From positions 62,001 to 126,000 of the forward strand of contig JAPEUD010000065.1 in assembly GCA_026026165.1 (NCBI GenBank): DNA of 64,000 bases, written 5' to 3'. Of the stretch, positions 22,095 through 49,490 are shown in pieces. How positions within the stretch are numbered: position 1 is the stretch's first letter; every line of letters begins with the position of its first letter. This DNA comes from Sarea resinae. Its lineage: Eukaryota. The translations under genes were made by a program, and so were the position numbers. The notes below the pieces were generated by a model that did no database searches, was not told the origin of the DNA, and saw nothing but the letters and a program-made list of their open reading frames with translations.

Positions 22095-24393
22095 TTAATT
22101 GGCGATGATATCATGCACGTCCAGGACCTCGTCGTCCTCACCGTCCCCGTTGCCCCCACTAAGGTCGAACGCGTCGCCTCCTTCGGCCGACTCATCGTCT
22201 AGGCCTTCGAAGATCATGAATTTCTCGTTTTTGGCATCCGCTGGGAATGGGGAAGGGAAAGTTTTAGTATTGGTTTGTGAATGTGAGATGAGAAGAAGAA
22301 CAACAAGAAGAAGTCAAGCGACAAGGACAACGGATGAAGGAAAAGACAATGGATTGAAAACCGTGGAAAAAAGGGGGAAGGAGAGGAAAAGTTGACTTAC
22401 TCTCATCAGGAATGACGTTGCCTTCCTGGACCTCACAATCCCTGAGCACAGACTCCTTCCCGATCCGAGACCTACGGCCTAGGATACAGCCATCAAGCTT
22501 ACACTTCTCGCCCACGACTGTGCCGTCCATGAGCAGACATCTCGTGAGACGAGCGCCGGCTTCGACCTTGCAGTTGGCACCGATGACGCTTTCTTTGATG
22601 ACGGCGCGCTCCTCGACCGTGACATTCTCCGCGATGAGACAGTCGCCGCGTGTTACGGTGCAGCGGGAGGCGAGGCCGGGGGGATAGGCAACTTTGGAGG
22701 CATGCGCGAAGGGGGACGCGAGTGTGCGGTTGCCGGGCCCAAGATCGTCGAGGGAATCGAGCTTGGCGAGACGTAGGGAGACGGTCAGGAGGAGGGCGGC
22801 AGTATCGACGCGATGCAGGAGGGTGGTCGATGGTGGCTGTGAGTGAGTGTATGCTAGCATGGGTGGGATCAGGAGTTTGGATTTGGGTTGTTGGGAGGCG
22901 GACGCGGACAAGGGGTGGAGTGTGGATCTGGGGTCTTGGACACGAGAGGCATAGTGGCTAGAAGGTTTGGAAGAGGAGTTATGATCACTGATGCCGCCGC
23001 CGAGCTGGCTGGTCCAGGTCGAGCTCATGCTGCCGACGTCAATGTCTTCTTCGATGAAGGTACTATTGCCCATATTGTTCTCATCTGCGTCCTGCTCTTC
23101 GGTGCTGTCGAAGACGTCGCGTAGACCGAGTTTCTCGCCCAGGCCATCCTGCCAGCCTGCTTTGGCCCACCAACCGACAACATCCTCAGCGATACTGTCC
23201 ATCTTCTCGTTGCGCTTGACCATGTCGAGGATCCAATAAGGGAAAAAGTAGATGTGTGCGTCGCGATGAGTTGTGAGCATTTTGACGTTAGCGTGCTTAC
23301 GGAGCAAAGAGTGGCGGACTGGGAAGGACTTCTTCTCTTCGGTGATATCTTTGAGAGTGTCGGTTGGGATGGAGTAGACGAGGTGCGAGAGATTCTGGCG
23401 GTGCGAGCCGGGAGGTATGGAGACAACGGGGGCGGGAAGGGGCGAGGTGGCTACGAAGTCGGTTTCTTCTCCTTTGACACCACCGTCACCTTTCGTTTGA
23501 TACCAAACACCGAGGCCACCTCTTCGTCCTCCCTTTTCGCCTCCAATGCTCATCTTGTGGAGTGACATCTCGGAGGGAACGCCACTGGCACCTCCTAGTC
23601 CGGCTTGCTGAATCATCCATAGTTCGAGGAAAGCTTCTCCTCCAATCTCGCAGACTAAGTCGCATGGTAAAAGTAGGAAGTCTCCAACGATCTCCTTTTG
23701 GACCTCCGGGAGACGGAGGATTTCGGCGGTCCCCGTGGTCTGAGTGAGATCTCTAGGAGCGATGATGTCTGGCTTCGGTAGGGGTAGAGACGTGAGATGT
23801 GGGTTCTGAGAGAAGGCGGTTTCTAATGCTGCCGCTGATGAGGGTGGGGTTATGAGGCGAATATCTTGAGTGGGTTTTTAGCTTACAATCAAGGCAAATC
23901 GAGGAACGCTATGATTCGATAAGAGAGGAAGCCATGAAGAGAGCATTGCACGCGGAATGCACATATTACATCCACAAGGAAGACGAACGGGCTATCTTCT
24001 AGCCCAAAAGAAATTTAAGGAAAGCATCGCGCAGTCACAGTCTATAGATCCCAGAGCAAACTGACACCGAAATAAAATGGCTATGTGGTTCAAAGAATTT
24101 GACGCTCTATCAAAAATGGCAAAGAACATGGAGATAGGCCCCGCAGCCATCTCTAAGCAGTCATGAAGCAAATCAAACAGCCGCAGAAGCACAGGCAAAT
24201 GACAGGACTTACTAGTAATGCCGAGTCGATAGCACCATTCCAGAGGATACCAGACCATAGGCCTATTGGCGATCGGCACCAGAGCTTTGGGAAACTCATC
24301 CGGAGACGACGTGAAGGTGTTTAGCGATACACCTGGGCCGCATAGAATGAGGGCTTGAAAGCCCGCCGATGGCACTGCCTGCGCATGTGGCAT
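22095..24393 (-). CDS. GCD1: Translation initiation factor eIF2B gamma subunit
   Basis: FQALILCGPG...PKALVPIANRPMVWYPL (NTP-transferase-like) plus C-terminal hexapeptide repeats (ESVIGANCKV, GCILGRRSRIG). Last exon DAKNEKFMIFEG...IIAN*. Confidence 0.93.
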
Positions 24394-25758
24394 GGTTAAG
24401 GACACTCAGATCAGACCTCAGGATGCCGCAAGCCTTCTCTGCAGTGATCTATTCTATCAAATCAGCGCCATTCATATCGATGGATGAGGCTCTTGACGTC
24501 AAATCGTGCCGATTTGGGGCAGGCTACGATCAGTTTTCCAATTTTCAGCACGGCTGATCCATGCCGACGATAGATAGAAGTTCAGAGGCGAGTCACCATA
24601 TCTGTTCTTGCACTTACTATGATTTCAGCGGCACATGCGGCTTTGACATCAATTTTAGGGATTGACAAATGTGGCTGCGCTTTTTCGGCGTATGGAGATA
24701 TATTCCAGTGTCTTGATCAAGGCTCAGAACGTGATTGGCTCAGTGGAGTTGAATTTCGAGATTCGCAAAGGCGCTGAGTCATCATACATCATTCATCATC
24801 CGTCATTCATCCTGCGAGACAGACCCTCCAGCTACAATGCACATGCTTCGTTTTCGACGACGAAGATGCCGGTCGATATCAATAGTCATTGAGCCGTTGA
24901 GTCGTTGAGCCATTATAGTCTAGGTCCTTCGGCTTTTCCTCATGGTCTCTGATCTCTGGTCACCCCCGTGTCTGTTGGAGCGAGATGAGTGCGCCGAAGC
25001 ATAAGAAGGCATTTGAGCCTTTAGGGTGGTCTTTCAAAGGGACATCAGCTCTGGCACCAGCATCCCCGATATCTTACTTTCAAGTCAGAGAATGGTCTAG
25101 AGGTCTTGTGCTGTCTCGCGCACAAGCTGGGTATCTCTTCCCAAATTGGATTCCATGATGGCCACAGCATAGACGATCCAGACCTCTTAGCCACTGTCCC
25201 TCGCCCTGCCTCTGTCCTCGTTTTCATCTGCCTTGCCGAAGCCTCTCGATGTCTCAGTGTGAGAGGTACGATCCAATGATTTTGGCGCACATAGACAATC
25301 GATCATGATGATGCAAATCGCTCTTTGAAATGCCGGATTCACCCAATATCCATGGAGGAGGCGCTATTGATGAGTACTATTACGTACGTAGTTCTGCGTA
25401 AGATTCCATGGACGATGGAAACAGAGAGTACCTATCCAACGCTCATCAATGTACCAGATTCAATGTGCAATTCTCAAAGACACGTTCATGATTCATGCAA
25501 AAGCTCCATCTCGAAACGGTGAGAAAACCCCCCACCTCGATCGCCGCGGAGGGCTGGCGAATGATTGGCGAGTGTGGATGTTTCCCGACCACGGCGACCA
25601 GCGACCAGCCACCTCCACATCCATGTCAACAAAGCTGGCCTCTCCCGGGGTCCACAGGTCCACCAACCACCACCTCAGGATACAGCTCGCCTTTTCCATC
25701 CCCATACGATTCTTGATGATAATTTGAGGCGTTGGGCTTGGCAACAACGAAAGTGCAG

Positions 25759-27192
25759 ATGTCTTTCTCTTATGATCGATACGAACGCCAGCGTCGCCGG
25801 CAGACCTATGGCGGCAGGAGTACTCTTGGATACTGGGTTCCTCTCGTACTCAGCGTGACCGTCGCAACCATCGGCGTAGCTGCCTGGATATGGAGTGAGC
25901 GTCGCGATGATGATGACGGCGATGATGATTACGACAGACGCGAAGGCGAATATCGCGACCAAAGAGTGCCGCGCCCGTATGGACCCGGCGACGCTGCCGG
26001 ACCGCCCGAGACGGATTATGCGTACCGACGAGAGACAGAGACCACACAAGTCGAAGATGAGGGCATGTTCTCCAGAGTGTCGGGAGCGCTACGGCGAACT
26101 CCCAGCCCTCAGCAGATTTTTGATAGCGCGAGAGGTAAAGTCGCGGCCGGAATGACAGCAGCTGGCGCGGCGGTAGGAGGAGCCTTGTCGTCGATACGGG
26201 AAGAAGATAAAGATGACTTTGGCGATCACTCGCGATGGTCCGAGGAGGCGGAGAGCCGCCAAACGAATGTCGATGTGCAGTCGACTCAACGCGCGCGAGA
26301 TATTGCTTCGGATACCGCCACGCCTTTGATGCCATCTGCCCGTCAAGGAGGCCCTTCTCAGTCTCGTGGAAGTAGCAGGAAGAGGACTGTGGCAGTGGTC
26401 GTTTCTGCAGATAGTGAGAGTATCACCGAGGCTCACGATATCAATGACTACGAGCATGCAGTAAGCTAGACCATAAGCTCGAACATTGCCCACAAAAGTG
26501 CAACGCTTGCTAATCTAAGATGGGCGACACAGTCGATACTATCGCACCTTTCCCACCACATCAATGCAGACTCAGCCACGATTTATGTCCTGATCTACGT
26601 CCCAGATCTGAAACAGCACCCTCTTTCCTCCCATCCTACTCGCACAGCTCCATCAATCACTTCTTCTTACTCCAACATTGGTCAAGAAGATCTACAGACT
26701 CCCAACGAAGAGGCAGAGAAGCCTCTATCCACGGTTGACCCGATTCCTCTGAGCTCTCCATCTCCACCTTCGCGCTTGCCGGAGTCTGCTTCCCCGTTCT
26801 TTAGCGCTCTGTACACGCAGGCGCAGACTTTAGTCGACAAGGAAACAATGATCCTTCCCTTCACCACCAAGACGGGCCACGTGAATCTGCTGCGCCATCT
26901 CGCACCTGAAGTCGTCTACATCCAAGAATCGCTCTCGGGTGAGGATGGGGACGCGATATCGCAGGTATCGGGATGGGTAGGGCAGGTGGTTATCGTCGTT
27001 GGAGATGAGGATGGGCATGGGGGATTAGTGGATAGTGAGGACGATTCTGGAGCCGCTGCGCTTTCGGGACAGCACAAGGGAAACAGTTGGTGGGAGAAGG
27101 GCGATCGGGTGGGACTAGGAAAGGGAATCGAAGTAGTGGAAGGGCTAAGGATTGGAGAGGACTGGGCAAGGAGAGTCGGGGGTAAAGAGTAG
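25759..27192 (+). CDS. Pex22-like peroxisomal membrane protein
   Basis: N-terminal TM GYWVPLVLSVTVATIGVAAWIWSER, LRRTPSPQQ, HLAPEVVYIQESLSG. Intron 26461-26532. Family call recalled from fungal Pex22-like proteins. Confidence 0.7.
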
Positions 27193-27828
27193 GGCGTCTT
27201 GTTGTCTTTCTTGCATTGATCTTGGAACATTGTTTTGAGGATTGCCTTGAGATGGAGGATGAATCACGCCATGAGGAGTATAGGGGTCCATACTTTGATT
27301 TGCTGAACTGATTAATTCACGTAACCAATTTCACTTAAGAACATTGCTAGATTCATGAGAAGGGCATATAAATGTTATCACCTAAGGTATTGTGAGAGCA
27401 GTCAAAAGCTTAGATAGGTACCTTACACAAGGTAGCAAGTACCAAGGTACCGAGGTGCCTCCCGTTGCCTTATTGACCTCACCAGCACGTGATATCGTAT
27501 CGGATCGCATCTAGCCCAATTCGGGCGCATCCAGACACGACTCCATCACGTTGAGCAGACAGACGACGATGCGATCTTGAAGAAGCTGCGCTGCGCTGCT
27601 TGGTGCTTTCGAACCTTGCCTCTACCTCTTGCTGAAGCCGCGGATGCTGGTCTGTCCAAGGTGACCGATTTCGCCGTCTCTCTCGGCGCGCATACCTCTC
27701 ATCATTACACATGTCGCTGGGGTCGAACTCAGTTTGCAGAATTGGCTTGTCGAGCGGGTAGTTGCATCGTCGGCTTCCGAGGCTGTTGACCTCAATATCG
27801 TCTCTGTGGGGAGTCTCGAGCCGTCGTT

Positions 27829-30802
27829 ATGGCGACGACATTGTCAACCAAGGCGCCGCAACCCCACCCAAAGATGAAGCGGCCTCCACCTTCTTCTGCG
27901 CAGACTTCCGTCAATGGCATCGGCGCGTCAAAAGGATCAGTGTCACCCTCCTTGAATTCAAAGAAGCCCCCATCCGCGGCGCAACATCTGGCCAATGCGG
28001 TCTCCACAGCAGGCGCCAATGGGGCCGGACAGCGGGTCAGCAACCGCCAACGGAGAGAGCCGCAGCGACCTGGAGATCCTCAGAGGCAGCTCAAGAATGG
28101 TGTGGGAACCGGTGCGGATGGATTGGATGGTGACCGCAGAGCTCTCAAGGAATTACCTCCTCGACCCTTCGGTATGTTTGCGCGCTTGCTTGACACTCCT
28201 ATATAGCCTACTAGGGCTCCCAAAGAATACAGATGCTAATGCTGCCATCGTAGTCAATACCTCAGGACATATCCTTCGGAAGTACAGGGGTAGTCCTCCA
28301 TCTCTAATTCTTCATCTCCATCCAACGCACTTCAGATTTGACCAGCAAGATGGAAGTTTCGGTTACAATTCGCCTATGAAAGTTATTCTAGAGCACATCC
28401 GTGCTCAGACAGTTCCTCATGATATGCTCGAGGAGCTCTTTGCTTCCAATGTTAGGTTTTACGACAGTGAGTAAAGCCATGCGGATAGCAATTGAATGCG
28501 ATATCCGCTTACCGTATTGCCAGACTGCCTCATTGTCCAGATTCATGATCACCGATCTGTCTCCACCCCCTCAAGCAATGCATCCTCAGGATCATCCTCA
28601 GATGATAAAAGCATCCCTTATTCAATACACAACTATAATGAACACTTGACGCCATCGCCATACGTGCCATTCCCCATTCCCGCCAAGTCAGATCCTGCAA
28701 AGGAGCAAAATGGACGGACCAAAGCAAGTACCCAAGAGGCCTCGCCTGAAATGAAACGTAAAACAACCATTCAAGGGAAAGACTCTATGCCAGCCCCAGC
28801 CCGACAAAAGGATGGCCAAGGCAAGTCTGCTCCCCTTGGACCGAGGGTCTTTACTACTGTCTTACATCCAACGGCTCTCTCTCTTCTGGCGGAGATGACT
28901 ATCTACGCTACCACACCGGATACCCGCGGTTCCAACAAACGACAATATTCAGCTTACGCAATGAATTCGTCGACTCCAGTTTCAGCTACAGGACCTCATC
29001 CACCGACTCCTCTGACTGCCGTTCCATCAACCCCTATCGGTGGCGGCTTTCCTCGACCTAAACGACAGAAGATGATGCTTGATGATCGATCCTTCCATGA
29101 TTTCGAAGCAAAGGTTCTTCTAGGAACGTCCGCCGGATTGTATCTCGATCCAGTGGACGGCCCGGCAGAAGCCCAATTACTCCTTAAGGCCTTGAAGGAT
29201 CCCTTACATGAAAGTAAACCTCCTCCGCCCAAGGCTCGAAAGCGTACCGTTGCCGAATTGGCTGCGGACGAAGCGCAAGCCGCGGAAGAGGAACGCTTTA
29301 TGCTTATTATGGACGAACGTCTTGCGCCTGCATCTGCCGGAGCAGCTGCGGGAGTAAAGTCTACGACAGATGGACAGAGTGGAGGCGCTTCATTCGAGCC
29401 CAGATTTGCACGATTCAAAACTCTGGAGAATATTAAGATACAGCATGAAGAGAGAGAGAAGCAGAGGAAAGAGAAAGAAGCGCAAGAAGCGGCAACAAAG
29501 AGGCAACAGCAGGAGCACATGGAAAGGGAGAGGAGGAGAGAATTCGAAGAGAAGCAGAGGAAAGAGCAGCAGATGAAGGAGATGCAGCAGCGCCAGCAGA
29601 CGCATGCGCAACTTGCTCAGCAAGCAAAGGCGCAACAGCAGGCGATCCATATGCAACAAAGCGGCATGATCCCGAACGTCCAGCAACAACACCTTCAGCA
29701 AGTCACGCAAGGCCAGCATTCTTCTCCTGTTGTCCGACAGCATACTCCGCTCAACTCATCTCCTCTTGTTGGAAACGTTATAGCAAGCCATCCTAGCGTG
29801 CCAATCAACGGTGGGACCCCGACCCAGGGAGCTGGAAGTCCTCGTCCACCCTCTGTAACCCAGCATGGACATCCTGCAATTTCGGCGGCAATGGCTCACC
29901 AAATGAGTCAGCAACAGAGCCAACAAGGACCAAGTCGACGTGGCACACCCCAAATGACCCAGGGTACTCCCAACATGCAACATGCAACACCTGTTATGCG
30001 CCATGTAACACCGACACCGCGAATGAGTCGAGCAAGTCCAGTAGCTGGTTCTGTAGCTCATACGCCCGTAATGAACCACAGCATGATGGCAGGCACTCCA
30101 CAAATGCACGCTGCCCAATTGACGCCGCAACAGCAACAAGCTTATATTCAGCGCCAACATGCACAGCAACAGTATTTGGCGCAGCAACAACAACAGTTGA
30201 GGGCCGCAGGAGGCCCGCAACTGACGCCTCAGCAGATCGCCCAGTTTCATGCCCAGCAGCAGCAACAGGCCCAACAAGCTATGCAGCAGCAGCAACAACA
30301 CCCAAATCAAACACAATACCAGCAACAGCTCGCCCGCCAGATGCAACAGCAGATGGCTGCCGCCGCCCGGCATGGTGTCCAAGCAGGTGCAGGAGGCGGA
30401 GGGCAAGCAGGAGCAGCAGCAGGAGGAGGCATGCAAATGGGCGCTATCAGGGCCAATAGTGTGAACACACCTAACGGTCGGCCCATACAGCAGAATCCGC
30501 AGAATCCGCAGGTCGTGCAAATGCAAATGGGGCAGCGCGCGTGGATGCAGCGGCAGATGGCGCAGCTACAAGCTCAATTCGGTAATAACATTCCCCCGCA
30601 ACATATGCAACGATTTACACAGCACGTGGCTATCATGCAACAACAGCAGCAGCAAATGATCAACGCAGCACAGATGGGGAGAGGAGCCAGACCTATGATG
30701 CAGCAGCAGCAGCAGGGACAGCAGGGACAGCAGGGACAGCCGCAGCAAGGCCTACAGGGGGTGCAGGGAATGCCTCAGGGGAGGGGTGCGGCGATGCAGT
30801 AG
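27829..30802 (+). CDS. SPT20: SAGA complex subunit Spt20
   Basis: HILRKYRGSPPSLILHLHPTHFRFDQQDGSF...TVPHDMLEEL...FYDNCLIVQIHDHR; Q-rich C-terminus. Introns 28172-28253 and 28467-28523. Confidence 0.93.
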
Positions 30803-33303
30803 AAAGTGTGCTTATGTTGGGCTGGGATGATGGTAAATGCTTTCCGTCTGTGTCTTGAAGGCGTACTCTGAATTTACACGGGCTGGGGATGTTTGATGAT
30901 TAGACGTCCGTCCATCGGGGTTACGCTTACGGTGTTTATTCATTTGGTCCGGTCCGGCCTGGTTTGGTTTGGTTTGGTTTGGCATATTATCTGTCCATTT
31001 GAGTCTGTTTCTCTTCCTTATTTGGTGCCTTGGGTTGTTTGGACTGCTTTGCCAGCTTGGGTGATTGGGAGAGAGGGGGGTTTGGGGGTGGTGCAATTTT
31101 TGGAACGTCGATGGTTGGTCCTTCATGCGACTCTTGCTACGACATGTATTATATGATTTTCTTGATTCTCGTCCTGAATACATACTCACTGGTAACCAGA
31201 GCTCGGCCAGACCACGATCAAGAGAAGTAGAGACTCTCTCAAGGTGTCAGATGATAGAACTCGAGATAATAGCCTCGATCGACTATCATTGCCTGACTCA
31301 CGTCTAACCACAGTCTGCAAATAGAGCGCGCAATCTCAAACCGCATCCGCATCTACCATCGACTAGGGGGCAAGGCGAGAACTTAGACTCCCAATTTTTC
31401 GTATTAGTCTATCAAAGCCTCGAGCTCCTGTGACCGGCGCCGCTGCAGCGGCGCCAGTGTCCGTACGAGAACATAGAGATCGATCCAAATGCCTACGGGG
31501 AGCAGAACTACTCACTGCTATGCGTACTCACACTACCTAGGTACAATTCCCAGCGTCCACAAAAAGGTGAACGCGTCATGCTTTCCTTTTTCCTTTCTTC
31601 TCTTCCTATCTAAATTTCCACCATTATTGTTGGGTGTTCCTGGAGACGAATCAAGGGGAGGCAGAGCGCGCCCTGCCCCGTGTGTCACTGTCAACGCCAA
31701 TGTCAATGCCGATGTCAACGTCACAATTCCCGCGTGTTTAGGGAAGGATGGTTGGGGCTTGTGGAATTGGGTTCAATTGAATTGAATGGATGTATGGATG
31801 GTGTCTAGAGATGAAGATGGGATTTCGGGACGACCACGCTCACGACGCGTAGATGGGCTCGAACTTAGATCTGCGCACCATGATACTAACCAAATACCTC
31901 ACGCTCTGGAAGTGAGTAGCTTAGTCCTGGCTTGATCAATGAATGCCATCTGGACGCCTCCCCTCTTTGAAAGTTGAGAGGAAGGAAGAAGGGAGGAGTT
32001 TCGCGTGGGGAGGGGGGGAGGGGAGGGAAGGGGCGGCGGGATCCGAGGTGGACCGTGGAAGAAAGACGAGCTAAGTAAGGCCTACCTACCTACCTCACCA
32101 TATGCCCCACTGGCCCCCCGGGCCCGAGGGGAACGGACGGCAAGCAAAGCAAGGACCACCGGGCCAAACTAGAAAGATGAAGATGAATTCCCGAAATCCC
32201 AGATCTGCTTATCAATTGCTTCGTATTATCTACGGAGGAGGGTGCAATCATCTGGATTACACAGCTGCTCATATCCTCCCGAGGAGTTAAAGAAATCTCT
32301 TTTTCTTTCACACGAAAAAGACGCGACGGCTGGACTGAGGATAGACTCTAGGAAAGATGAATTAGCTTCGGCAGATGGAAGTGAGGGTTGGGAATTGGAT
32401 GGTCTAGTCTACGAATTCGTCGTCGATCATTGAGGGTGTTAGACTTGAACTCGGCATCAAGGCGCTGATGGCGAGCCACTACACCAAGATCGCACGAAGC
32501 TTCTCAAACACCTGACTCTCTCTCCATCGGCCGGCGCGACCATTTCGAGACATGACAAAGACATGCGGAAAGCGGAGCGGGGGAAAGGCTTCAGCAGTCC
32601 AACGGATCTGGATTGAACTTAAAGCTACCTACATGGTATGCTATGTTTCATCTTGCATCGTGCTGGCTGATGGCCTGCCGCTGCGCCAACCTCGAGAGAT
32701 TCAGAGAATGAAAGCTCAGAGATATATTGATTCTTCACGATCAACGCTGGACGAAGGCAGTATGTGCCGAACGTAGCAGGCTCTCGGACTCCACAACTCC
32801 ACATCTCCACCTCTCCGCCTCTCCACACCTCTACATGTCCCACTTCGGCGTCATTATCCGCGCGTCTGATGGCGGGCCCCTGCTCCAGTGGTCTACTCTA
32901 GCAGCAAGCCACCATCAAGGAAGCCGGAAGCCAACATGAACGCCTCCGGAATAGCCCTAGTAGTAGACCTGGTACAGGTAGGCGGAATGGAGAGGAAAGA
33001 TGCGCAGGTGTCCCGATCGCCCATCTTACGAGGTATTGAAACCAGGGCACTGCGGTCGCATACCTGCATTGATGCCTGCATACCTGTACGGATGGCGACA
33101 GAATACTTGACCACGTTCGCAGCTCAATGCCTGTCGGCCTGCCTGCTAGTCGAGCACAGACTTCTTTGGTACTGATAATAAAATGGAGTCTCTGCTGTGG
33201 GAGATGTCGCCGTCGATGAGTCGCGTCCCCACGGACCCACAGTCTGCTCTGCCTCCCCCTGCCCTGGCCTGCACTGGCCGGCCCTGGCAGATCTCTGCCA
33301 GGG

Positions 33304-36300
33304 CATTCTTATTATGATTACCATGACGACGATCATGGAGGAGGACAAAAACGGTTATGACCTCCAAGGTACGAGGCTAGGATGGCAATCATTGGCCTGG
33401 TGGATTTAGGTTCAAGGCAGGGGAGTTGCTAGTCTACTCTGTATGCTCGTCGCCTGGTATGGCGTGCATGCGGTAGCTTGGGTGCTTGCAGATGCTCCCA
33501 GCTGCTTGCGATGGAGGTACGAAGTACTTGGGTGGTCGATGATCATGATCGACGGCCGATGATGATCTCGGTAAGAGAGAAATGAGAGGATGAGAGAGGA
33601 TGAGAGAGGACGAGAGAGTCTCTCCACGACTTACGTCACAGTGAGATCTCAGATCACCATCGCCCGCCAGCGATGAGATGACTACCTGAGGTGGGTTAGA
33701 ATCAACATGGATATCCGTGGATCGATGGATGCTGGCACCAGATGGGAAAGGAAAGTCCCTTCCAAGACAGCACGGGCTGGTGACGACGATGATCCTGATC
33801 ATGGTCGTCCGCTGATAGTCATGATGATAACAGCACTACGCGGGGCCATCTCCATTCATCGTCTGGATTCATGTTCGTGCATCTCCACTGTCTCGCCTTC
33901 TCGATTGGGCATGACGGGGGTGGAGGGACCGGTGGCAGCGCGATCGAATAGGCCCGACCGATATCGAGCTGGAGATCACTTGCTGCATACTTGGTACCTC
34001 TCACCAAATGAGAGACATCGAAGTGTGAAACCGAACCCTATCGAACGCTTCTTCTGGGAGCTTCAGCGTCCTGAGGGAGCCTTCCGAGTGCCCAACGGTC
34101 CTTGGCTGCCTCGATGCCGTGGTCACAAGCCGTGAATCTTGGGACCAGAGTGACTGACTACAGAGTGGAGAGGGTGAGAGGGCGAGAGGACGAGAGAGTG
34201 GTGATTGTCCATTTCCGGTCATTCTTTTGTGTGGTCAGGGGTCTGAGAGCAGCTGAGCCGAGATGTCGGGCCCGCTAAAGTTGCTGCACATCGTCGTCTG
34301 TCTCGATGAGCATGGACTATTAGGGGATCCACATTGACACCGGCAAAGACTGTGGTAGGTGAGGTGTCATATTTGTTTCCCCAAACCCCGCTTGGGCCAG
34401 ATCCTTTACCCTCTCGAAATGAAGAAATTGGCTTCGAATCATTTCATTCAGGCGCAACAGAGTCCCGCCCGCTCGCTCGAAATTGGGCAATTCGAGACGA
34501 ATCACGGGTGTTTCTACTGAGATTATGTCTACCGCCATCGAAAATCGAATTAGCATTACTAGCAATGGCGCAGAATCGCGGAAGCGCGTTCGCCAGTGCT
34601 CCTCGGAGCATTTTCTCCTTCAGCCTTTTGATTTTACGTTACTGGCGTTGTTGTCATGGACTTTCGTCAAGAACATTCTCGATTGTCGATGTTAAGATAT
34701 GCTGTTCAAGCTCGAGGTGATGGGACCTGGGCCCTCGCAGTAGTTCTCTGTGGCTATCCATTAGGGCCCGTTGTTATTCTCCGGTTGACGTTCCCGGGGG
34801 GGGGGGGCCCCAGTGCGAATCACTAAGGTGTCTTGTTTCAGAATTCCCTAGGGTGGCAGAGGGCGACAGTAGCTGAGAGGCTAAGCAGCAGAGAAGTGGG
34901 ACTTGCCCAAAGTGGCCATTCGCCTCAAGTGGCTCGCTCGAAGCTCGGATTCGGCAGCCGACAATGGATGATGCTATACATGCTACGTACGATCTGCAAC
35001 AAAGTGGCTGACGCATTGATCATCCACGGAACAGCTCAAGGGAAATGTCAACCGGCCACTGATTGGACTTCAGACTCCCTTCCAAACCAAACCAGGAACG
35101 GCTGCAGGCTGCAGGCTTTTAACCCACAGATGTGGCCAGGTCCTACGAGCCTTGATCTCATCATTCCCCAGCTCGAGCGAGGCCTGTGCCACATTCCTGA
35201 CACCTCATATCATTCCACACTTTCTGACTTTAGGTTTTTGGAGATGCACAACTCTGCATCTTGAGCAGAGAGATCTTTACCAAAGAGGATCCTTGTGAAT
35301 CCGTATCTGGGAACCCCAGGGGCCTAGTCAAATGCCGGGTATCTCCGCCCTATCCGCAGGATCGATTCTATCGTATTGGTCGAGCAGGTGATTCGCGTCT
35401 GCACGGACAAGATGCTAAGGTCAGAATATAGACGGATAGCTCTGCAACAGCTGCTGACTGAGGCGAACTAAAGCTTCCCGGCACAGCGGCCGCGCCTTGT
35501 CGAGAGCGTTGAAACTCTGTTAAATGCAATGCTGGTCATTGTTCGCATAACGCAGGTCCCAAATCCTGGACATGGCTGCACATTCCCACCCTGCCGTTTA
35601 CAAGTAGTAGAAAAAAAGTTCGTCAATCGACGGCAGATTTCGGCCGTGATGATATCAGTCCCGTGATAACAAAGTCTGCAGCACCGCAGGAGCCCCAGCC
35701 TTTGACTTGTTGCTTCTGCAACTTGCTGTCAAAGTTTGGGACCGAAGGCTTTCATACGATCTGTAGAGCATTCCCAGCGGAAGAGCATCCGAATCTTCGG
35801 AGGTCTGCGATCCTGGCCGAGACTGGCACACCATTACTGCGGAAGGCGCTTTTTGCAAAAGGCTGATGTTTCAATGGACAGACCACTACCCCAATCTTCC
35901 TTGAGAAAGCGACCAGACCCTATCATAAAGGGTCGTTTGTCGTTCCGTGACAGCAGCTTCCGGAAACCACTAAAGCGAGGGGATCGAAGATTCTGATTCT
36001 TAAAGAAGGTGCAGTGGCCCTTTCTGGATGAGCTCTGAGACCCCATCTGCAAGGCCTCACATAACGAAAGAACCGTCCGAACGTCTCTTCTTGTTACGTG
36101 GATAAGAACTGTGCAGCCTTCTCTTTGGCCACGTTCAAAGAATCTGTCGTTCCTGAGTTATCGACTAAGATAGGAAGGCCCCCTTACAGTTTATCGTCCG
36201 ATCACCCTCTTTCGCCTGGGAACCACCTTTCTCTTCTCAACCCGTACCCGCCTCGCCGTGGATTAGCAAGCTCTGGCACTCTATTGCTTCTCACTCCATC

Positions 36301-36630
36301 GGCTAAAGTTGGTTCGAGACTCTTCGCCTCTATCCGACTCTATCAGAAACCCGTCACTGATATTCGGCGGTTACCACACCTTCTAACCACCTCCCCGAGC
36401 ACATTCCAACGGCTTCGCCTTGCTTTGCACCGCGCGATCGCGAACGCGTCTTGAAGACACCCGTCCAGTCATAGTATGTTCCACAAGGGTAGGTTCGAAA
36501 GAGTTTGAAGTTTCCAACGGCTCCAAGGTCGATCAGTCAATTTCGTTATCGTTGCTGATGTTTTATTTCCACTCAAAAATCCTTTGTCCTCTTCTTCATC
36601 CTTTTTCCGATTTTCATTTTCTGTCATTCC
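33304..36630 (+). promoter_or_regulatory. Cluster of CATTCY (AbaA/TEA-type) motifs upstream of and within the intron of the C2H2 gene
   Basis: CATTCY at 33304, 34220, 34674, 35162, 35192, 35211, 35581, 35769, 36402, 36625. Function is inferred. Confidence 0.4.
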
Positions 36631-38079
36631 TTTTACATCTTTCGCCCATCTGTCGACGTCTCTCCTTCAAAAAGCATATCTAGCCAACACCTTTTTTCCT
36701 TCTACGGTCAGCATTGATTGTCTCTGCCGATATCGTATACTGACCCATCGACAGGTCCATCAATAGCTAGAAATCGGCTTGGAGAGGAATACTCGGCCGA
36801 GTGCATCGAAGCCATGAGTAGGATTCTGAGAAACACAACTCGGATCGACACGCAAGGACATTGCTCTTCTGCTAGTTCAAGCTTCTCCAGCGCCGATCCA
36901 TCAACACCATCGCCCTCATTTTTCTACCGACGTCCGTCCATCGCCTCTTCGTCGTCGTGGGAGCCCGGCCTCTCAGGCCGCTCATCGGTCATCTCACCCC
37001 AATCGCCAGGCCCATCCACTCCCAAACGGGAAGAAGAGCTCTCGCCCGTCGATCTGTTTGCTGCAGAACCTTATAGTAGCTATTCTGCTGCCATGATGCC
37101 CAACACCCTTTCGGAACGAGAACTGGGCGAGGTGCTGATGCCGTTCAGCCAGCCCTTCGAGGACGTGGCCACCTCGGGGATTGGGGCTGCCTCCAAGAGT
37201 TTCCTCGACTTCGACTACGGCGAATACCAGATGTCGTCGTTTGGCCAGATGCCCAACCCTTTTCTACAAGACAGTGCTCGTTTCGTCGCCGCGTCCTCGA
37301 CTCCGACCTACGATCCGGCGCTCTTCAGATTCGATCTCACACAAGCGTGCGACTTTTCGTCGCCGCTCGAAAGCGCCTTCACGACCCCAACCAGCGAGCG
37401 GCATCATCCATCGAGAACGGTGGTGCCATCGCAAACCTGCGCAGAGCCCATCGTCGGCACATCACAAACGCCCGGCGTTGTTTCTGCAGTGGCGACCTCA
37501 TCAGCACCAACAGCAACGACCTCGTCCTATCACTCCTTCTACGACCGTTCCAACACGCTCAACCCAGACTCGCCCTCTTCCTCAATGACAGGATACAGCC
37601 TCACGCCTTCCCCGACACGAACACCCTCTCGCCACCCCTCCACCCGCAGCACGCGGCCTCAGCACCACCAGCAACACCATCATCAACAACATCACCGCGC
37701 CTCCCTCTTCTCCAATCCGCCCTCCAGCACCTCCTCCACAACGCGGATAACTAAACTAAAAAAGCCGTCGCGCCGGGCAACACAAATGACGCGATATGGT
37801 GTGGAAGCGGAGATTGTGGGCACGAACAAAGTGCACAAGTGCAAATGGTTGAACCCGGAGGACGGAAGCGCGTGCGACAAGGCGTTTCAGCGCCAAGAGC
37901 ATCTCAAGCGCCATGAGAAGACGCATGATGGCAAGAAGCCGTTCAAGTGTCTTGTGCCTGGTTGCCCGAAGAGCTTTTCGCGATCCGATAACCTGAAGAG
38001 TCATAATAATACCCATGACCCTACCAAGCAGGGAGGACGCAACATGAAGGTCGAGAATCATCGGAGCTACCTGCAGTAG
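36476..38079 (+). CDS. BrlA-like C2H2 zinc-finger transcription factor
   Basis: Two C-terminal fingers [19 protein letters not shown] and [25 protein letters not shown]. Mini-exon ATGTTCCACAAGG (36476-36488), intron 36489-36754; second in-frame ATG at 36814. C2H2 is certain; brlA orthology is probable but unproven. Confidence 0.85.
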
Positions 38080-42477: not shown

Positions 42478-43397
42478 TCAGTATCCACAGCTCGCTGCTG
42501 GTACCGGCATTTCCAGAGGGTACGCTCCATCTCCCATCACAACGTCTGGGCCTGGGTTTGGGTACTTGACTTCAGCCGTAGTATGAGGCGTCATGCAGCC
42601 ATTGTCAGTATCAGCAATGAGAAGGCCTGGGCGTTGAGCGAATGAGACAGAAGATGAGGACGGTGCTGCATAGTCGGCATCCGAGGAGGGCGAGGCGGAC
42701 GAAGAGGTACTAGGAGTGATGGTCACGGCCGCGCAATTCATGTTGAATTCTTGTTCGCGATTGAACCAAGTCCTAGAAATTTGTAACGAGACATTAGTTG
42801 AACACACTCAGCCATAAGCGGGAATGCAGTATGATACACAGACGAGGGAGGGATGATGAGGAAGTTAGATTACCAAGCAAAGACGACATCTCCAGTAGGT
42901 ATGTCGGAGGGAACAGTGAAATTGAAATTCTGACCCGCGTCATACCCGCCATTTCGATGGGGACAGTTGCCTTCATACGTAGTGGCGACGTGGAAGGTGT
43001 TACCGTTGTCGGTTGAGAAGCCAACTTGACAGGAACCACCCCAATGATTGCCGATGCCCGTGATACTATTGTTGCAAGATGCGTTAGCAAGGGTTTCCTG
43101 AAAGAGAGAGTGTTCTGATAGATGGAAAACTTACTTGAAATTTTGCGCACTTCCAGCCTCCCACTGAGCTACTGGCGCGCCCTCTGGAGATCCTAGCAGT
43201 GGCAAGTAGCCACGGCACGGGAGAGGAGTTTGCCGTCCGCAACAGTTGTGTGGAAACTGAAGGTAAGGGTCTGAAGGACCATCGAGATGGGGATTGTTTG
43301 AGGCGTTGAACGGAGCCGGGTAGACAAGTTGCATGTGAGCCTGCACCTGCACTGCTAGAAGGAACGTGAGAGAGATGATGATCTCAACGGACTTCAT
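42478..43397 (-). CDS. Secreted AA11-family lytic polysaccharide monooxygenase-like protein
   Basis: Signal peptide ending QVQA, then mature His1 (HMQLVYPAP); NHWGGSCQ; FAWTWFNREQEFNMNCAAV; C-terminal YPNPG. Two introns. Confidence 0.85.
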
Positions 43398-44604
43398 CTT
43401 GCCAGAAGAAAAGTCGACGAGAAGGTTGAGTGTGTCAATGAATGAATGGCTTCTCAAAATGAGCGGTATTGCAAAGAACTGAGGCCTGAGAGGAGGTTGG
43501 GAAAGAGAAGTGTGGAAGTCGAGGGAAGCTGAAGGTCACGAAGGCTTTTGATTCATTTCGAATCAATCAAGAAGTGAATGAATAAGTTCAACAAAGCTGA
43601 TCCTTCTGCTGTTCACCGGAGTGTGCCAATCTCTTGCACAAATGAATACACCGAACAGCGCCGGGCGACAAAGCACAAGGAAAGTGAGGGAGTGAACAGT
43701 GAAAGGTAATCACGACAGTCAAATGCATCCCGTCATCATCCAGTGAGTGACAGCACCGGAGGGCTACCATCAATTATATATGCAGATATTCGGCCATCAC
43801 AGCTTCATACAATAGGGGCCGTAGGCAATATACACCAGCAGGCACATTCGAATGCAGAGGGGAAAGTAGGTTAGCAAGCAAGGCGCCAAATCGGCCACTC
43901 GCAGCCAACAGAGTGATGTTGTTTCAAAGTCGCGATGATTGCTGTGCAGAGAAGCGAGGATACGAGAGCCAGACTCAGAGCGACATGAAATGAAACACGC
44001 ACGAACACGTCTCCTGGCCTGTACTGGCCGTGCTACCTGAGATGGCGTTTTCCTTCTGGAGCAAACATCGGCCTGTCATCTATATATCTGTGCTGGATCG
44101 TGGAGTCTGGAGCTTGGGCCGGGGATTCTGCTTCCATCTACGACTGCATACCGAGGCTATAACAAATGTTACATTCTGCTTGGGCTCACGAGCCACTCTT
44201 CCTATATAATTCCGGGGCATCCATGGCCAGTAATGAGGTATACTGACTTCAACGAGAGAATGCCATCGAAGGTGATGGCCGGCGCGCCAGATTTCTTGCA
44301 TCTTACAGCTTCGCCCCTAGAAGGCAATGGACGAACTCGTTTTCAAATGATGACAACCCTTATTGGTAAGCTCATCTCATATGATTGAACGATCCATGGT
44401 TCATCTTCTGGTGACCCTATTGACCAAAACCCAAAGGGTCAAGGCTGCAATATTGGAAACAAACAAAGTAAACTTATCGCTCACACGCACAAATGCACCG
44501 AGGCAAAGATTATAGACAAATGCAAACGCTTTCAAAAGAAATTCTGATTGACAAAGGCTGAAAGACTTCTCAGCCTCCAGGGCAAACCAAGTCAATCAGT
44601 GTCA

Positions 44605-45396
44605 CTAGCCTGACCTCCCGCCGTATCCACCACGCCCGCCATGGCCTCCACGAGCAGCCCTGTCTCTTCGTCGGCGGATAGCTGCCCGTATAACATCGCT
44701 GTCCGAGTCATAAAGCGCAGCGAATCCATCGCTCTCCGAAGAATCAGACGCAGGATGCCTATACCTGCCTGCGCGATATTCATCACTGTCTGAAGCATCG
44801 AGCGAGGGATGCCTATGCATGTCCACGGGATATGCGTCTCTTGAATTTCCAGTCGTCCTAGGATTGCCAGAGGCCGGGCCAGCCCGAATGCCCTATGGAC
44901 CATATTGTTCCTCCAATCGAGGAAGGAGCCATGGGGGAAGGCGATGATCGTCCCAGCCTGTATATCCACGTGTCCGTAGCTCCTCTACAACCTCTGGGAT
45001 TGACAGTCGATTGAGGAGATTGAGGAAATCGAGGGGTTCGAACTCTAACGCCCCTCGTCGCTGTCGTATAGAACGAAAGTCTTCAGGGCCAGGACCACGG
45101 TGAGCGTGCAGAGGAGGGTAGCCTGGTGGGCCATACACGGGATGAAGTTGAAGATCATTTATGCCACCATATATGCGCTGCCTACGGCGAGCATCTTCTT
45201 CGCTGTCATCATCAGGGTCATGGGGCTGGTCGCTGTCGTCGTCCAAATCGGCGTAGCCTTCCTCGTCGCTGCTGCTGAAGCGTAGGCGATCACGCCTATG
45301 CAAAGGAGGCATTCGTCCTTCTCCGGTTCGAGATCGAGGGGCCGCATTGTCGTCGACTCCGCGTCTTGCTCGTCGAGGATGTTGTCTTCCGTACAT
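44605..45396 (-). pseudogene. Orphan R/D/G-rich gene, copy 1, with a single in-frame TAG (pseudogene, or recoded CDS)
   Basis: ORF 44893-45396 continues in the same frame past TAG 44893-44895 into ORF 44605-44826, with the same composition. TATA-like element near 45530. Confidence 0.5.
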
Positions 45397-45863
45397 TGTT
45401 ATGGGAGCTGTCTTTCACAAAACCGACATGGATGATGCCAAGAGGGGCTTGCGTGTCGGTTGCTTGTTCGTGGTTGGTGATAATTTCAAGAAGATAGCTG
45501 CAAGTTCACTGCTTGTTCGTTGATGTTTTAATATAGAAGAAGACAAAGCATAGCGCGAGTCCAGGGAGATAGCCTTACTTATACCAGCAGTGGCGGCAGG
45601 CGCCCGCCAGCCTTCACCCATGAAGTTGACCACTCCAAGCATATTCACATTCGCATCAACGTCAAATTGGCATCAATCAGATTCACCATCTACTGGCAAT
45701 TATCAAAGGCAGTTATATCATTCTTGCGGTGGCGATGACGAAGTATGCAATCAATCCTGTTGCGGGAGAGCTAAAACTGACGATATCGTATCTGTAGATC
45801 TCGTAGTTCTTGTATTTAGAACATCATTATGATCACGCAAGTCTACAACAAAGTGAGTATATT

Positions 45864-46568
45864 CTATTTAAAGTAAAACAAAATAGAAAGCTCGACACTG
45901 TCGTAGGCAGCATCAAAAGAGCCCGTCCCAACCCCTCCAAAAGAATCCCACCTTCCTCGCCTTCTTCCCATACGATGGTCGCGTTGCATCCGCCCTCCAG
46001 CATTCCTATCGTATTCATGGTCGTCATTGGAATACGAGTCCAAGTCTGAGTAGTAATCACTATCAGGATCATAGTCATGCTGGGGTCCGCTCTGACCTCG
46101 GCCTCGGCCTCTATCTCTACCGCGCCGTCTCCGCCGACGTCTACCCCCAGCATGTGGTGGTGCCGGTCCTCTACCATGCAGTACATTTCCTGGCGCATGT
46201 TCCTGACCTTCCGCTGCAGCTTGGGCCTCCGGAGAGAGGATATCAGGCTCATCTGCCGGGGCTTCCGCGTCCCTCCCCGGATGGACATTGTCCCACGATT
46301 GCTCTTCTACGCTTGGTTCACCAGCTGCCAGCAACTGCCTAACTTCGCGTTCAGGTGCGAGCATCACATTGCCGTCATGGCAGTGGTAGTAGAACCCATG
46401 ATGAGGGTTCCCTGGTCGGATCTCAACGTTGGAGTTTTGCACAAGCATCAGGTCTCCGATTATGATGACATCGCCGTACTCATTGTACATTGGCCAGCAG
46501 CCCCCTTGTAGATTATGCCCACGGCGACGTAGAAGATGAAGTTCTTCGAAGAGGCCCTGACCAGACAT
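45864..46568 (-). CDS. Orphan R/D/G-rich protein, copy 2 (234 aa)
   Basis: Uninterrupted ORF; shares HxG(F/W)xYHC and DILSPEAxAAA with the adjacent ORF. Confidence 0.7.
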   Translation of the reverse strand: MSGQGLFEELHLLRRRGHNLQGGCWPMYNEYGDVIIIGDLMLVQNSNVEIRPGNPHHGFYYHCHDGNVMLAPEREVRQLLAAGEPSVEEQSWDNVHPGRDAEAPADEPDILSPEAQAAAEGQEHAPGNVLHGRGPAPPHAGGRRRRRRRGRDRGRGRGQSGPQHDYDPDSDYYSDLDSYSNDDHEYDRNAGGRMQRDHRMGRRRGRWDSFGGVGTGSFDAAYDSVELSILFYFK

Positions 46569-46906
46569 TGTTGCTGGGCGAATATCTATAACTTCTTTTC
46601 AAAATACCAGAGTTGGACGGGGGTATGTGGGATTGCATTGAAACAGAAATAGTGAGTGAAATATAGATAGTCCATGAAAGAGGAGGGACAAAGAGGAGGA
46701 AGAAGTGCAAGCAAATGCCATTATATGCCTAGCCACCCTGAGCATGCAAGTACGTGACTCACTCTCTGATCCGTGTAAAGCTCATTAATCGTGTCAAATT
46801 GCATCTAGGTTCACTGTATCTCAAGGAATTTCACGGACTGCGTTATTTGCACAAGATCATCTATATTCACTCAAAGCTGTCTCCTTATGACTTGCTACAA
46901 GAAAGC

Positions 46907-47698
46907 CTAATAGTAATCTTCGGGGTCTCTCCTGTATCTCGCTCTCTCGCGTCTCATACGTCGTGCAGACCGCTCCCGCTCTTCGTTCTCATCACTGTCA
47001 GAGCCGGAGTCGTCACTATAGTCAGATTCCGCCTCGACGTCATATTTTTGGTGCCGCTCCCTCCTGCGTCTCGGCTGTCTGTCTCCAGCGAATCGATCAT
47101 TTTCTAAGACACGCTCTGATCTGCCCGCTGCTGCACGAGCCTCTGGAGAGAGGATGTCCTCTCCCTCTGCTATATCCTCTGCCTGTAGAGGGGCGGCTTC
47201 ACGGACCTCAAGCCGATCATGGGCCCTTACGGCACCTCTAGGTTGAACTTCATATCGCGGTGGCTCATCGTCCAGCAGGGCTGCTTGGGCCGCTGCTAGA
47301 TTTCTATTTGCCTGGTCAAATGCAAGGTCATGGTAGCCTTCTCGCCGATGACTATGTCTCCGTTGGCTTCTTGCTTCGCCGTATCGATCTGCCTCTGCAC
47401 CTCTGCTACTGTACTCCAGTCGGGCTTCTCCTGTACCATCGCCAAGCAGCATTGTGACTTCGTACGGATGGGCGGGTATCGGGCGACGGCCAGCGCAGTG
47501 GTAGTGCCACCCATAATGATCATCGTTTCGAGCGACCTGCCAATTACATGCAAGCGGCATTCCATATCCTCTAGAACCAACACGTCTCACTGCGAGAAGC
47601 CCACCTGGGACTGGGAAGACCGCACACGGCGGCCTTCCATATTGACCGAGGAGACGTCGCTGACGACGCTCTTCATAGCCGTAGCCTTGGCCGTACAT
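46907..47698 (-). CDS. Orphan R/D/G-rich protein, copy 3 (263 aa)
   Basis: Uninterrupted ORF, paralogous to copy 2. TATATAAA on the minus strand at 47823-47830. Confidence 0.72.
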   Translation of the reverse strand: MYGQGYGYEERRQRRLLGQYGRPPCAVFPVPGGLLAVRRVGSRGYGMPLACNWQVARNDDHYGWHYHCAGRRPIPAHPYEVTMLLGDGTGEARLEYSSRGAEADRYGEARSQRRHSHRREGYHDLAFDQANRNLAAAQAALLDDEPPRYEVQPRGAVRAHDRLEVREAAPLQAEDIAEGEDILSPEARAAAGRSERVLENDRFAGDRQPRRRRERHQKYDVEAESDYSDDSGSDSDENEERERSARRMRRERARYRRDPEDYY

Positions 47699-49490
47699 TC
47701 TGGTAAGAGCAGTGAGTGTCTAATATGTTTTTGATAATTAGAATGGGCAAGCAAGGAATCCGGGAAGTCGAGTTCTCTGAGAAAGAAGTAAGATGGAGAA
47801 GGAAAGAGGGCCTCCGAAGAGCTTTATATAGCTGAGAAGCTAGGTACTTGCGGTATTGATATGCTCAGATTCACTCACATCCCTCGGCTTCCTAATTACT
47901 ACAGTAGGCCGAGGAAAACATCATTCCTAATCACGCAAAGCTGTATCACTTATACTTCTAGCTATATCAAATTTCTTATCTTATGATGCCGTCTTGCCTT
48001 TGCAGTCCAGCATCAGAAGCTTGATCTTCCCATTGTGCTACTGTTTTGTAAAAAGGGGTCAGAAATGGGAAGCACAAAGAGACTCAGCGCTCTAGCTCTC
48101 GAGCTTTGTTTAGCTCGGATCGCAGAAACCAAATGAGCGAGATTTGTAGAGAAAGACTAGAACGAGCAGTGGGAGCTTCTCCAAGATCAGCGGGCACAGT
48201 TTGGCGATGCTGATGAAATCCCTGCTGACCTCCTCAATTCGTCACGAGTGTTCGAATTCGGCGGGGATTCGAATTTGGTGAGCCAGTACCATTGACAAGC
48301 GCGTTGATTCAAATAGCTCCGGCTAAACGTTTGATGAGTGTGGACCCAAGTGCATGACTGGTCGAGATATACAGGCAATTGCCGCACCAAATCCCGTCCA
48401 GCGAACTTGTCAATGATGAGATAGAGTGAATACAGCTGGGTTCAAAAACATAAATACACTTGAGAACGACTCTCCTCTGCTGGGGATCGAACACACAACC
48501 TTGAGAGCACGAAGTACACCAAGTACCGGCAGGTATCATGCCCCTTCCCAAAACGGCAAATTCACAACAAAGGCCTGCAAAAAGCTCAGGTCCCCTTGTT
48601 GGGAACCCTACGAAAACCTTTCGGGTTTCCTGAGGAGGACAGACTACGAATCTTAAACTCCCGTTCTACGCTCGAGTACATAGGAAAGGTCTCTTTCTCG
48701 ACCCTTTACATTCGACACTTTCCATAAGGGCGAACCCCGAGATTATGCCACAACCCTAACTCGTTGGAAAAGAAGAGTTTATTTGAATCTATATACCCCC
48801 CAGCGCCAGCGCCACTGCGCATGCTCCGTTACAAGTTCTGGATACCTTATCAGCCCACTAAGGCCTTCACCAGGCCAGCCCCAATAATATTTTTAATACT
48901 TTAGTCCTTTCGTCGTCAACGCGTTTATACGTGATCTAGCAAGTCGCTACCTCTGCAATAGCCAAGCTATCGTACTGGCTTTCTGAGATAATTTGATGCC
49001 AAACTACCTATGTATAACCCTCTAGATAATTTATTTCTTAAACTTGAACTTATATCCAGTCAACTCGAGTAGTAGAGCTGGGAGGTTTCTTTTTCTTAAA
49101 TCTCTTTTAGGAAATTGATTTCATAGTATGAGAAAATTAAGTTTTGCAAAGAGCTCGATAATGAAAATTAACTCTAGAAATGAATATCTTTACAATGTAG
49201 TCATTTGTTGAAAGATTGATCGTGACAAAAGACGAGTTGACGGTAATAGGCGCTTGGAAAAGATGATGCTATGTTGCACCTTATCGATAAGGAGCATCAA
49301 CACGCGACACAAGCGCGTACCACTCTCTGTTGTCTCGCTCTTTGGCGCGTCCCCACGGCTTCCGACGGTCGCATCTCTGCGAGTGTTTACGAATCTATTT
49401 CCAAAGTCGCCTTCTTATTTTCCCGGCGGTAAAGACAGTGAGAGGACGCTGAACCTTTTCATCAAGGAGATTTTCCCGTTCCCCGCAACA

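Follow-up and report, generated by a model that had tools for sequence, protein, structure and literature searches.

We analysed a 64,000-nucleotide stretch of Sarea resinae DNA, called the window throughout, and identified in it a gene that we consider, with a probability of about 0.85 judged from sequence, to be a true but divergent brlA orthologue with an alpha/beta layout outside the Eurotiomycetes. The strongest evidence for brlA orthology is the layout of the gene, which lies outside the interval 36814–38079 given in the original prediction of a divergent BrlA-like conidiation regulator.

The predicted protein

The main frame is a single-exon, brlA-alpha-type open reading frame of 421 amino acids (36814–38079, + strand, as are all features of the gene described below), and its exact protein is P0002. 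A conserved Cys/Ser-rich block near the N-terminus (residues 16–49; 36859–36960) aligns with the N-terminal block of BrlA, and a central T-x-x-P-S-Q motif is common to the family and Penicillium BrlA in the alignment (37417–37437). Two C-terminal C2H2 fingers follow, with intact Cys/His ligands and a Pfam zf-C2H2 match above the cut-off: finger 1 (37840–37926; sequence and alignment) has a 10-residue Cys spacer and the helix RQEHLKRH, and finger 2 (37948–38016; sequence, Pfam and alignment) has the helix RSDNLKSH. The protein ends with the GGRN motif, a short tail of 11 residues and the stop (38032–38079). The reading frame, both helices, GGRN, the Ser-rich N-terminal block, the long finger-1 spacer and the short tail are all present as first described.

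Two C-terminal fingers, GGRN, the N-terminal Cys/Ser block and T-x-x-P-S-Q are shared with BrlA of Penicillium and A. nidulans. The Sarea protein differs from Penicillium BrlA in the number of finger-1 inter-cysteine residues (10 versus 4; 9 in the Xylona protein P0122), in the tail after GGRN (11 versus 48 residues) and at position 6 of finger 2 (Ser versus Ala); the helix residues at positions −1, 2 and 3 are identical in the two proteins. As the long C-terminal tail of the Eurotiomycete form is absent, the Sarea protein is filed as a variant and not as the Eurotiales form. It is mostly disordered (Atlas pLDDT 0.47) and a PDB search with it returned generic zinc fingers. The top Atlas cluster is automatically named brlA (0.96), but SteA-type clusters reach 0.95, and the name is treated as a lead only; the structural matches there were uninformative.

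The recognition helices are the same as in Msn2/MsnA/Seb1 and hence probably read an AGGGG-type site, as expected from the canonical C2H2 code. RQEHLKRH and RSDNL also occur in the host Msn2 orthologue (L005), and the helices alone therefore do not diagnose BrlA. The resemblance to BrlA at both ends that was first noted is borne out by an end-to-end alignment with Penicillium BrlA, but the helices by themselves do not carry it. Msn2 differs from the Sarea protein in being a separate host gene and in its finger spacing, and it has neither GGRN nor N-terminal likeness. Ste12/SteA differ in an RLEH helix and in the STE domain of Ste12, and have no likeness to the Sarea protein outside the fingers; a published orthogroup unites the Ste12/SteA fingers and Ustilago Biz1/Mzr1/Ztf1 with Aspergillaceae BrlA (10.1101/2021.12.16.472873).

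Gene layout and upstream region

Two word-index searches gave 64 and 58 matches from 8000 candidates, none of them an NCBI-named Eurotiales BrlA, and reference genes were therefore taken from metagenome contigs by a scan with a degenerate pattern of the two helices plus GGRN. The scan returned nine loci: four encode Penicillium-type BrlA (L018, L020 and L021/L023), two are of Geotrichum type (L016 and L017) and three are near-identical copies of another protein. The L023 protein falls into a cluster of 14, in which all proteins with a name come from Penicillium and several carry an automatic brlA label in UniRef. The brlA genes L021 and L023 are identical and lie on a single 103-kb contig in opposite orientations, through either an assembly artefact or a duplication.

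Upstream of the main frame we predict, from the DNA pattern and its Penicillium parallels, (i) a beta micro-exon of 13 nt made up of ATG, three codons and one base (36476–36488) and (ii) a phase-1 intron of 266 nt (36489–36754; 65% C+T) with the donor GTAGGT, the branch sequence CTGAC near 36740 and the acceptor CAG. The predicted splice would keep the frame and add 24 codons ahead of the ATG at 36814, extending the protein by 24 amino acids. A 13-nt coding exon is likewise present at both Penicillium loci; the phase-1 intron measures 286 nt in L018 and 260 nt in L023, and the extension 23 and 24 amino acids, respectively. Four NCBI Penicillium models of the L023 cluster start with a 24-residue extension. 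The extension sequences of Sarea, L018 and L023 are not alike. For A. nidulans, BrlA-beta is described as 23 amino acids longer than alpha, the beta transcript having an intron inside which the alpha transcript starts (10.1101/627414). At the DNA level, the Sarea gene has in common with the brlA genes of Penicillium and A. nidulans the 13-nt micro-exon, the phase-1 intron and the 23–24-residue extension, and by analogy its beta intron would be expected to hold the alpha promoter.

In a scan of 128,672 bases from the host, a strict version of this layout fits one ATG of 4370, namely that of the Sarea gene, and a loose version fits 8 of the 4370, with criteria for the layout and motif tests that were set after the loci had been seen. 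In the micro-ORF test the nearest ATG upstream of the beta ATG lies 448 nt away and opens 25 codons; no upstream ATG micro-ORF occurs within 400 nt in L018 or L023 either. Short contigs of a second DNA run (X2) are 98–100% identical to window positions 33951–37259, leaving the micro-exon uncovered, and a strain near-identical to the Sarea host occurs elsewhere.

The 5.7 kb ahead of the micro-exon (30803–36475) show short ORFs only, and no recognisable gene, in the ORF list; a long upstream intergenic region is a known property of brlA according to PMC3730340. Within it lies a non-coding block, CATTCC...GCCTTGCTT (36402–36425, + strand), that combines the consensus CATTCY, given in PMC3741515 as the AbaA response element, with a 9-mer common to three loci. 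The block begins 74 nt before the beta ATG in Sarea, and CATTCC followed by GCCTTGCTT is found upstream of the beta ATG in Sarea, L018 and L023, at −412, −425 and −384 from the alpha ATG. The window contains the pattern a single time (0 of 100 shuffles) and the genome three times; in a fairer test based on alignment, an equally high score was reached by 10 of 1066 window segments. We consider the shared block to lend moderate support, at the level of sequence, to brlA orthology. Upstream of the Sarea gene there are four ARE sites, a borderline count reached by 17 of 300 shuffles, and BRE sites are not enriched (one site, reached by 225 of 300 shuffles). One TEA-domain gene was found in the host genome.

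Synteny

SPT20, encoding a SAGA subunit, is the immediate upstream neighbour (27790–30802, + strand, start approximate; Pfam). It is preceded by a gene without Pfam family (25723–27192, + strand), matched to AN0977 by position alone, and by an eIF2B-gamma-like gene encoding an eIF2B-type LbH protein (22264–24405, − strand, ends approximate; Pfam and the AN0978 row). Farther upstream lie bZIP (+), tRNase Z (+) and histidine acid phosphatase (−) genes (11883–20472, ends approximate; Pfam, Afu1g16460 and Afu1g16470), the first two spanning 11883–18315. The neighbours named in the original prediction were largely recovered, SPT20, the eIF2B-type protein and the acid phosphatase, as well as tRNase Z, being identified by Pfam, but the bZIP match is weak (E 0.039, below the cut-off) and split by a probable intron. 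The window also holds Mis12 and Swc5/BCNT genes (Pfam) and, between them, a MIF/tautomerase-domain gene (53154–54629, − strand) that may correspond to AN0964 by position. Elsewhere in the window, three neighbouring Arg/Asp-rich ORFs lack a Pfam match (44893–47719, − strand), two of which (45864–46598 and 46907–47719) have short stretches in common and seem to be tandem paralogues of an unknown family. The exon 43131–43535 (− strand) has a signal-peptide-like start followed by His and no Pfam match over the cut-off; secreted, copper-binding proteins of the LPMO-like kind begin in a similar way. AN0952, AN0960 and AN0966 may be acid phosphatase, Mis12 and Swc5; the yeast genes YOR260W and YKR079C are GCD1, the eIF2B-gamma gene, and TRZ1.

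The comparison with Aspergillus uses gene numbers standing in for maps. In A. nidulans, brlA is given as AN0973 (PMC7641419) and Spt20 as AN0976 (PMC3676421); AN0978 pairs with YOR260W and Afu1g16470 with YKR079C in the orthologue table of PMC3730340, and Afu1g16460 is described as a bZIP gene (PMC5215518). The window order of eIF2B-gamma, the gene without Pfam family, SPT20 and the Sarea gene equals AN0978, AN0977, AN0976 and AN0973. In the same orthologue table the AN0977 orthologue, SPT20 and brlA are ATEG_05138, ATEG_05139 and ATEG_05140 in A. terreus, and SPT20 and brlA are Afu1g16580 and Afu1g16590 in A. fumigatus; the two genes also have numbers near each other in A. oryzae, A. clavatus and two Talaromyces (PMC3730340). 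Synteny is thus present, with SPT20 and brlA consecutively numbered in A. terreus and A. fumigatus. Of the Aspergillus neighbourhood originally proposed, the gene numbers recover SPT20, eIF2B-gamma and bZIP; the acid phosphatase may correspond to AN0952. The CPY and SBDS orthologues map elsewhere in Aspergillus, as far as the published gene numbers go.

According to the same table Fusarium, for which it gives no brlA row, likewise has SPT20 next to AN0977 (PMC3730340); the block is therefore old, and what matters is solely which gene fills the slot. The slot after SPT20, the CATTCC block and the long upstream region are features that the Sarea gene shares with brlA of Penicillium and A. nidulans. 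No SPT20 was found within ~9 kb upstream of brlA in the Penicillium loci L018 or L023. In Uncinocarpus the orthologues of AN0966 and SPT20 are consecutive (UREG_02920 and UREG_02921; PMC3730340), an empty slot that, as a lead, fits brlA loss. Histoplasma has one unassigned number at the slot (HCBG_01287; PMC3730340), likewise a lead, which fits a remark that Histoplasma kept BrlA (PMC7531577).

Placement of the host

We placed the host with the SPT20 exon adjoining the Sarea gene, which matched 566 proteins, the best 120 of which were used. Among these 120 of 566, the nearest rows after a 100% identical record were Candelina and Xylona (both 56%) and Trichoglossum (53%); Eurotiales SPT20 among the matches listed were 44–49% identical to that of the host. 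In a quick tree of 33 named rows picked from the 120, the host grouped with Xylona (support 89) and was parted from 15 of 15 Eurotiomycetes by a branch with a support of 100. A 19-row quick tree from the first 560 residues again united the host and Xylona (SH-aLRT 97) and rejected a host within Eurotiales (p-AU 6e-110) or within Eurotiomycetes (p-AU 0.005). These AU tests refute contamination with Eurotiales DNA. The host lies outside Eurotiales and Eurotiomycetes, a clear result although obtained from one gene, and it is not the ordinary Eurotiales species for which the original prediction had allowed. PMC9157775 assigns S. resinae, under the name Tromera, to the Xylonaceae and describes pycnidia and conidiogenous cells that are mostly phialidic.

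Relatives of the Sarea gene

Long word-index matches came from Pycnora (36% identity over 85% of the query), Lasallia (33% over 97%), Caeruleum (31% over 91%) and Geoglossum umbratile (32% over 56%). G. simile and Thelocarpon gave shorter BLAST matches, yet are full-length in the alignment, and the second search added Ptychographa, Phialocephala and Mollisia. In a representative search, 148 of the 150 rows listed were other, mostly many-fingered proteins, and P0122 and P0003 were used. P0122 is a 112-residue protein of Xylona heveae that is 71% identical to the Sarea protein. Equal contig sizes suggest that this BrlA-like fragment and the Xylona SPT20 lie on one scaffold, and the fragmentary gene model may explain why surveys missed the gene. 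The Lasallia protein has an automatic brlA name in UniRef; its source species reportedly has neither abaA nor conidia. P0048, P0059 and P0064 possess the tail of BrlA, and in the finger tree they form the sister group of Penicillium BrlA (91/81); our guess is that they belong to Chaetothyriales.

Several further groups were noted beside the family. P0235, P0237, P0057 and similar proteins form a helotialean two-finger group with BrlA helices, a P-S-Q-T motif and a different tail; JGI names several such proteins 'zinc finger protein BrlA', and their family link is borderline. For P0014 and P0018, Penicillium BrlA is the best-scoring counterpart of the fingers, and the sequence outside the fingers gives a match of 95.8% with the window group. 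The Geotrichum-type yeast proteins of L016 and L017 have a GGRN tail and no N-terminal likeness, and possibly mark a deeper root of the family. The family may be wider still, taking in the GGRN-less helotialean group (Phialocephala, Mollisia), P0014/P0018 and perhaps the Geotrichum gene.

Protein comparison beyond the fingers

BLASTP gave an alignment of 427 columns with 27% identity between the Sarea protein and Penicillium BrlA (P0389; E 1e-25, uncorrected for composition); with host Msn2 it aligned 49 columns, in the fingers only. Taking 14 family proteins without their fingers, we built a profile and compared each score with those of 200 shuffles. All three Penicillium BrlA proteins exceeded every one of the 200 shuffles (14.3, 11.4 and 2.5 bits), the lowest narrowly (2.5 versus a shuffle maximum of 1.1), and none of the eight controls did so (host Msn2, FlbC, CreA and Swi5-like; Ste12, Geotrichum, Mortierella and L015). 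Since the tail-bearing P0048 and P0064 also failed, false negatives do occur in this test; the result for Phialocephala is borderline (5 of 200 shuffles) and that for Mollisia negative. With hhalign, the finger-free window group scored 0.3% against Penicillium, which is not significant; the window group matched the Lasallia group at 98.7% and the Lasallia group matched Penicillium at 89.2%, with Msn2, Ste12 and Geotrichum controls below 1%. These comparisons point weakly to sequence homology of the Sarea protein to BrlA outside the fingers.

A search of the host genome with the Sarea protein gave nine matches; the other eight are finger-only or of low identity. Judged by motifs, we take these eight to be CreA, AmdX, FlbC, Msn2, Swi5-like, TFIIIA-like and others. 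The reciprocal search gave a divided answer: in phmmer with Penicillium BrlA the Sarea gene ties with CreA (40.9 versus 41.5 bits), but by full-length local score it is clearly best (257 versus at most 154 for eight other host C2H2 ORFs). Among five host matches to Penicillium BrlA there is no second BrlA-like gene. In the host genome, P0064 prefers Msn2 and P0057 prefers PacC by phmmer, its match on C111 being presumably PacC-like.

Finger trees were computed from 44 rows (5 of 49 dropped) and then from 39 rows without five long or stray rows. In both, a weak branch (70/92 and 77/92) sets Sarea and BrlA apart from Msn2, CreA, AmdX and Ste12; the interior of the family has no resolution and two microsporidian proteins are pulled in. 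AU tests on the fingers reject neither a clade of the window protein with Msn2 (p-AU 0.089) nor one with BrlA (p-AU 0.219). Host Msn2 (L005) groups with two other Msn2-type proteins at 100/96–98. The finger tree neither shows nor contradicts orthology. That the protein is not of the Msn2/Seb1 type follows from the separate host Msn2 and from an alignment that runs end to end with BrlA and covers only the fingers of Msn2.

Discussion

We propose that the Sarea gene was inherited in place, beside SPT20, from an ancestor older than the Eurotiomycetes. An upstream beta transcript would splice the 13-nt exon onto the main exon to encode a 445-residue protein, and an alpha transcript would start in the C/T-rich intron to encode the 421-residue protein. 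The two fingers would read an AGGGG-like site, the Ser/Pro-rich remainder would activate transcription and AbaA would feed back through the CATTCC site near the beta start. The likeliest output would be that conidium-forming cells in pycnidia are switched on. Splicing, the two transcripts, the binding site and the AbaA feedback in Sarea are what we infer from analogy with known brlA systems. By the same analogy, we give a role in conidiation about even odds, because the tail is missing, BRE sites are not enriched and a relative occurs in a Lasallia species that reportedly has neither abaA nor conidia.

The orthologue may instead have another job, as an old activator of development or stress responses (in hyphal differentiation, fruiting or starvation); its recruitment to conidiophore formation would then be confined to the Eurotiales, as would the origin of the long tail. 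This account is compatible with orthology and competes only with the conidiation step, and we place it just short of an even chance. The absent tail, the remodelled finger 1, the lack of BRE enrichment upstream and the Lasallia relative fit it, as does the fact that Sordariomycetes form conidia without a brlA orthologue; an AbaA-type block conserved in position with two Penicillium loci, the TEA-domain gene of the host and the phialidic conidia of Xylonaceae speak for conidiation. Orthology itself would fail if the gene were a brlA sister from an old duplication at the locus or an unrelated GGRN-type C2H2 gene beside SPT20, with brlA proper of the Eurotiales still a later invention. We regard this as unlikely: low identity, a finger tree without resolution, ties in reciprocal searches and GGRN-tailed two-finger proteins without N-terminal likeness in Geotrichum and L015 are set against agreement in the slot, the 13-nt exon, the phase and length of the intron and the upstream block, and against the absence of a second BrlA-like gene among the five host matches to Penicillium BrlA.

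That an Msn2/Seb1-type protein, or one of another common C2H2 clade, was mistaken for BrlA through shared helices is largely refuted and very improbable. The helices are indeed those of host Msn2 and the joint clade is not rejected (p-AU 0.089), but host Msn2 is a separate gene that groups firmly with its own type, lacks GGRN and has no likeness to the Sarea protein outside the fingers. A contaminant contig from Eurotiales or a horizontal transfer of brlA from a mould is scarcely credible, even though the source of an identical SPT20 record labels it as metagenome-assembled: the AU tests reject a place in Eurotiales or Eurotiomycetes for the SPT20 of this contig, the finger region is nearest to Xylona and not to a mould, and the Sarea protein is not nested inside Eurotiales BrlA.

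As a very probable brlA orthologue, the Sarea gene differs from brlA of Aspergillus and Penicillium in belonging to a host outside the Eurotiomycetes that forms pycnidia instead of conidiophores. A so-called BrlA has reportedly been found in Metarhizium and Beauveria (PMC9604561). In published accounts of its distribution, BrlA seems limited to Eurotiales (PMC5307856), brlA is absent from all other Ascomycota outside Eurotiomycetes in a survey with an E-value cut-off of e-100 (PMC6231087), and brlA emerged with the Eurotiomycetes, probably also occurring in some Chaetothyriales and Endocarpon (10.1101/627414). The last source calls brlA counterparts and their regulation outside Eurotiales undetermined (10.1101/627414), and Histoplasma is stated to have kept BrlA (PMC7531577). 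The restriction to Eurotiales from which the original prediction started is found in PMC5307856, but other work had already widened it to some Chaetothyriales, Endocarpon and Histoplasma. With a pairwise E of 1e-25, the Sarea gene would be out of reach of a survey that required e-100 (PMC6231087). It resembles the probable BrlA of Chaetothyriales, Endocarpon and Histoplasma in being a BrlA-like gene outside Eurotiales; those published cases, however, are all Eurotiomycetes, and the Sarea gene is in another class and has no tail (10.1101/627414; PMC7531577). Mention of a Xylonomycete or lichen-lineage brlA orthologue was not found in a mostly open-access literature whose supplementary hit tables may hold some. 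The Sarea gene is very probably a brlA orthologue outside the Eurotiomycetes, where three surveys found none.

The gene had been put forward as a syntenic ancestral brlA that would push back the origin of the central conidiation pathway. It appears syntenic and orthologous, but 'ancestral' does not suit a living and derived gene, and an older brlA does not by itself show that the whole BrlA–AbaA–WetA pathway is older. A broader proposal, which we make tentatively and at somewhat less than even odds, is that a two-promoter brlA with an AbaA feedback site arose at or before the ancestor of the Eurotiomycetes, the Lecanoromycetes and the Xylona/Geoglossum/Candelaria lineage, already driving phialidic conidia; rapid divergence, broken gene models and recurrent loss from the SPT20 slot would then have created the false impression of a 'late invention' in surveys.

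The SPT20 slot, the 13-nt micro-exon and the CATTCC block provide a cheap search rule for the genomes of lichens and endophytes, and with the tail-less Sarea gene the contribution of the Eurotiales tail could be put to a direct experiment. Textbooks present brlA as the master switch of sporulation in moulds, and it is a standard example of a late-invented regulator plugged into older networks. A syntenic gene with an alpha/beta layout in Xylonaceae would, if it is a true orthologue, turn this history of gain into one of retention, divergence and loss, and the brlA switch would look much older than published surveys concluded.
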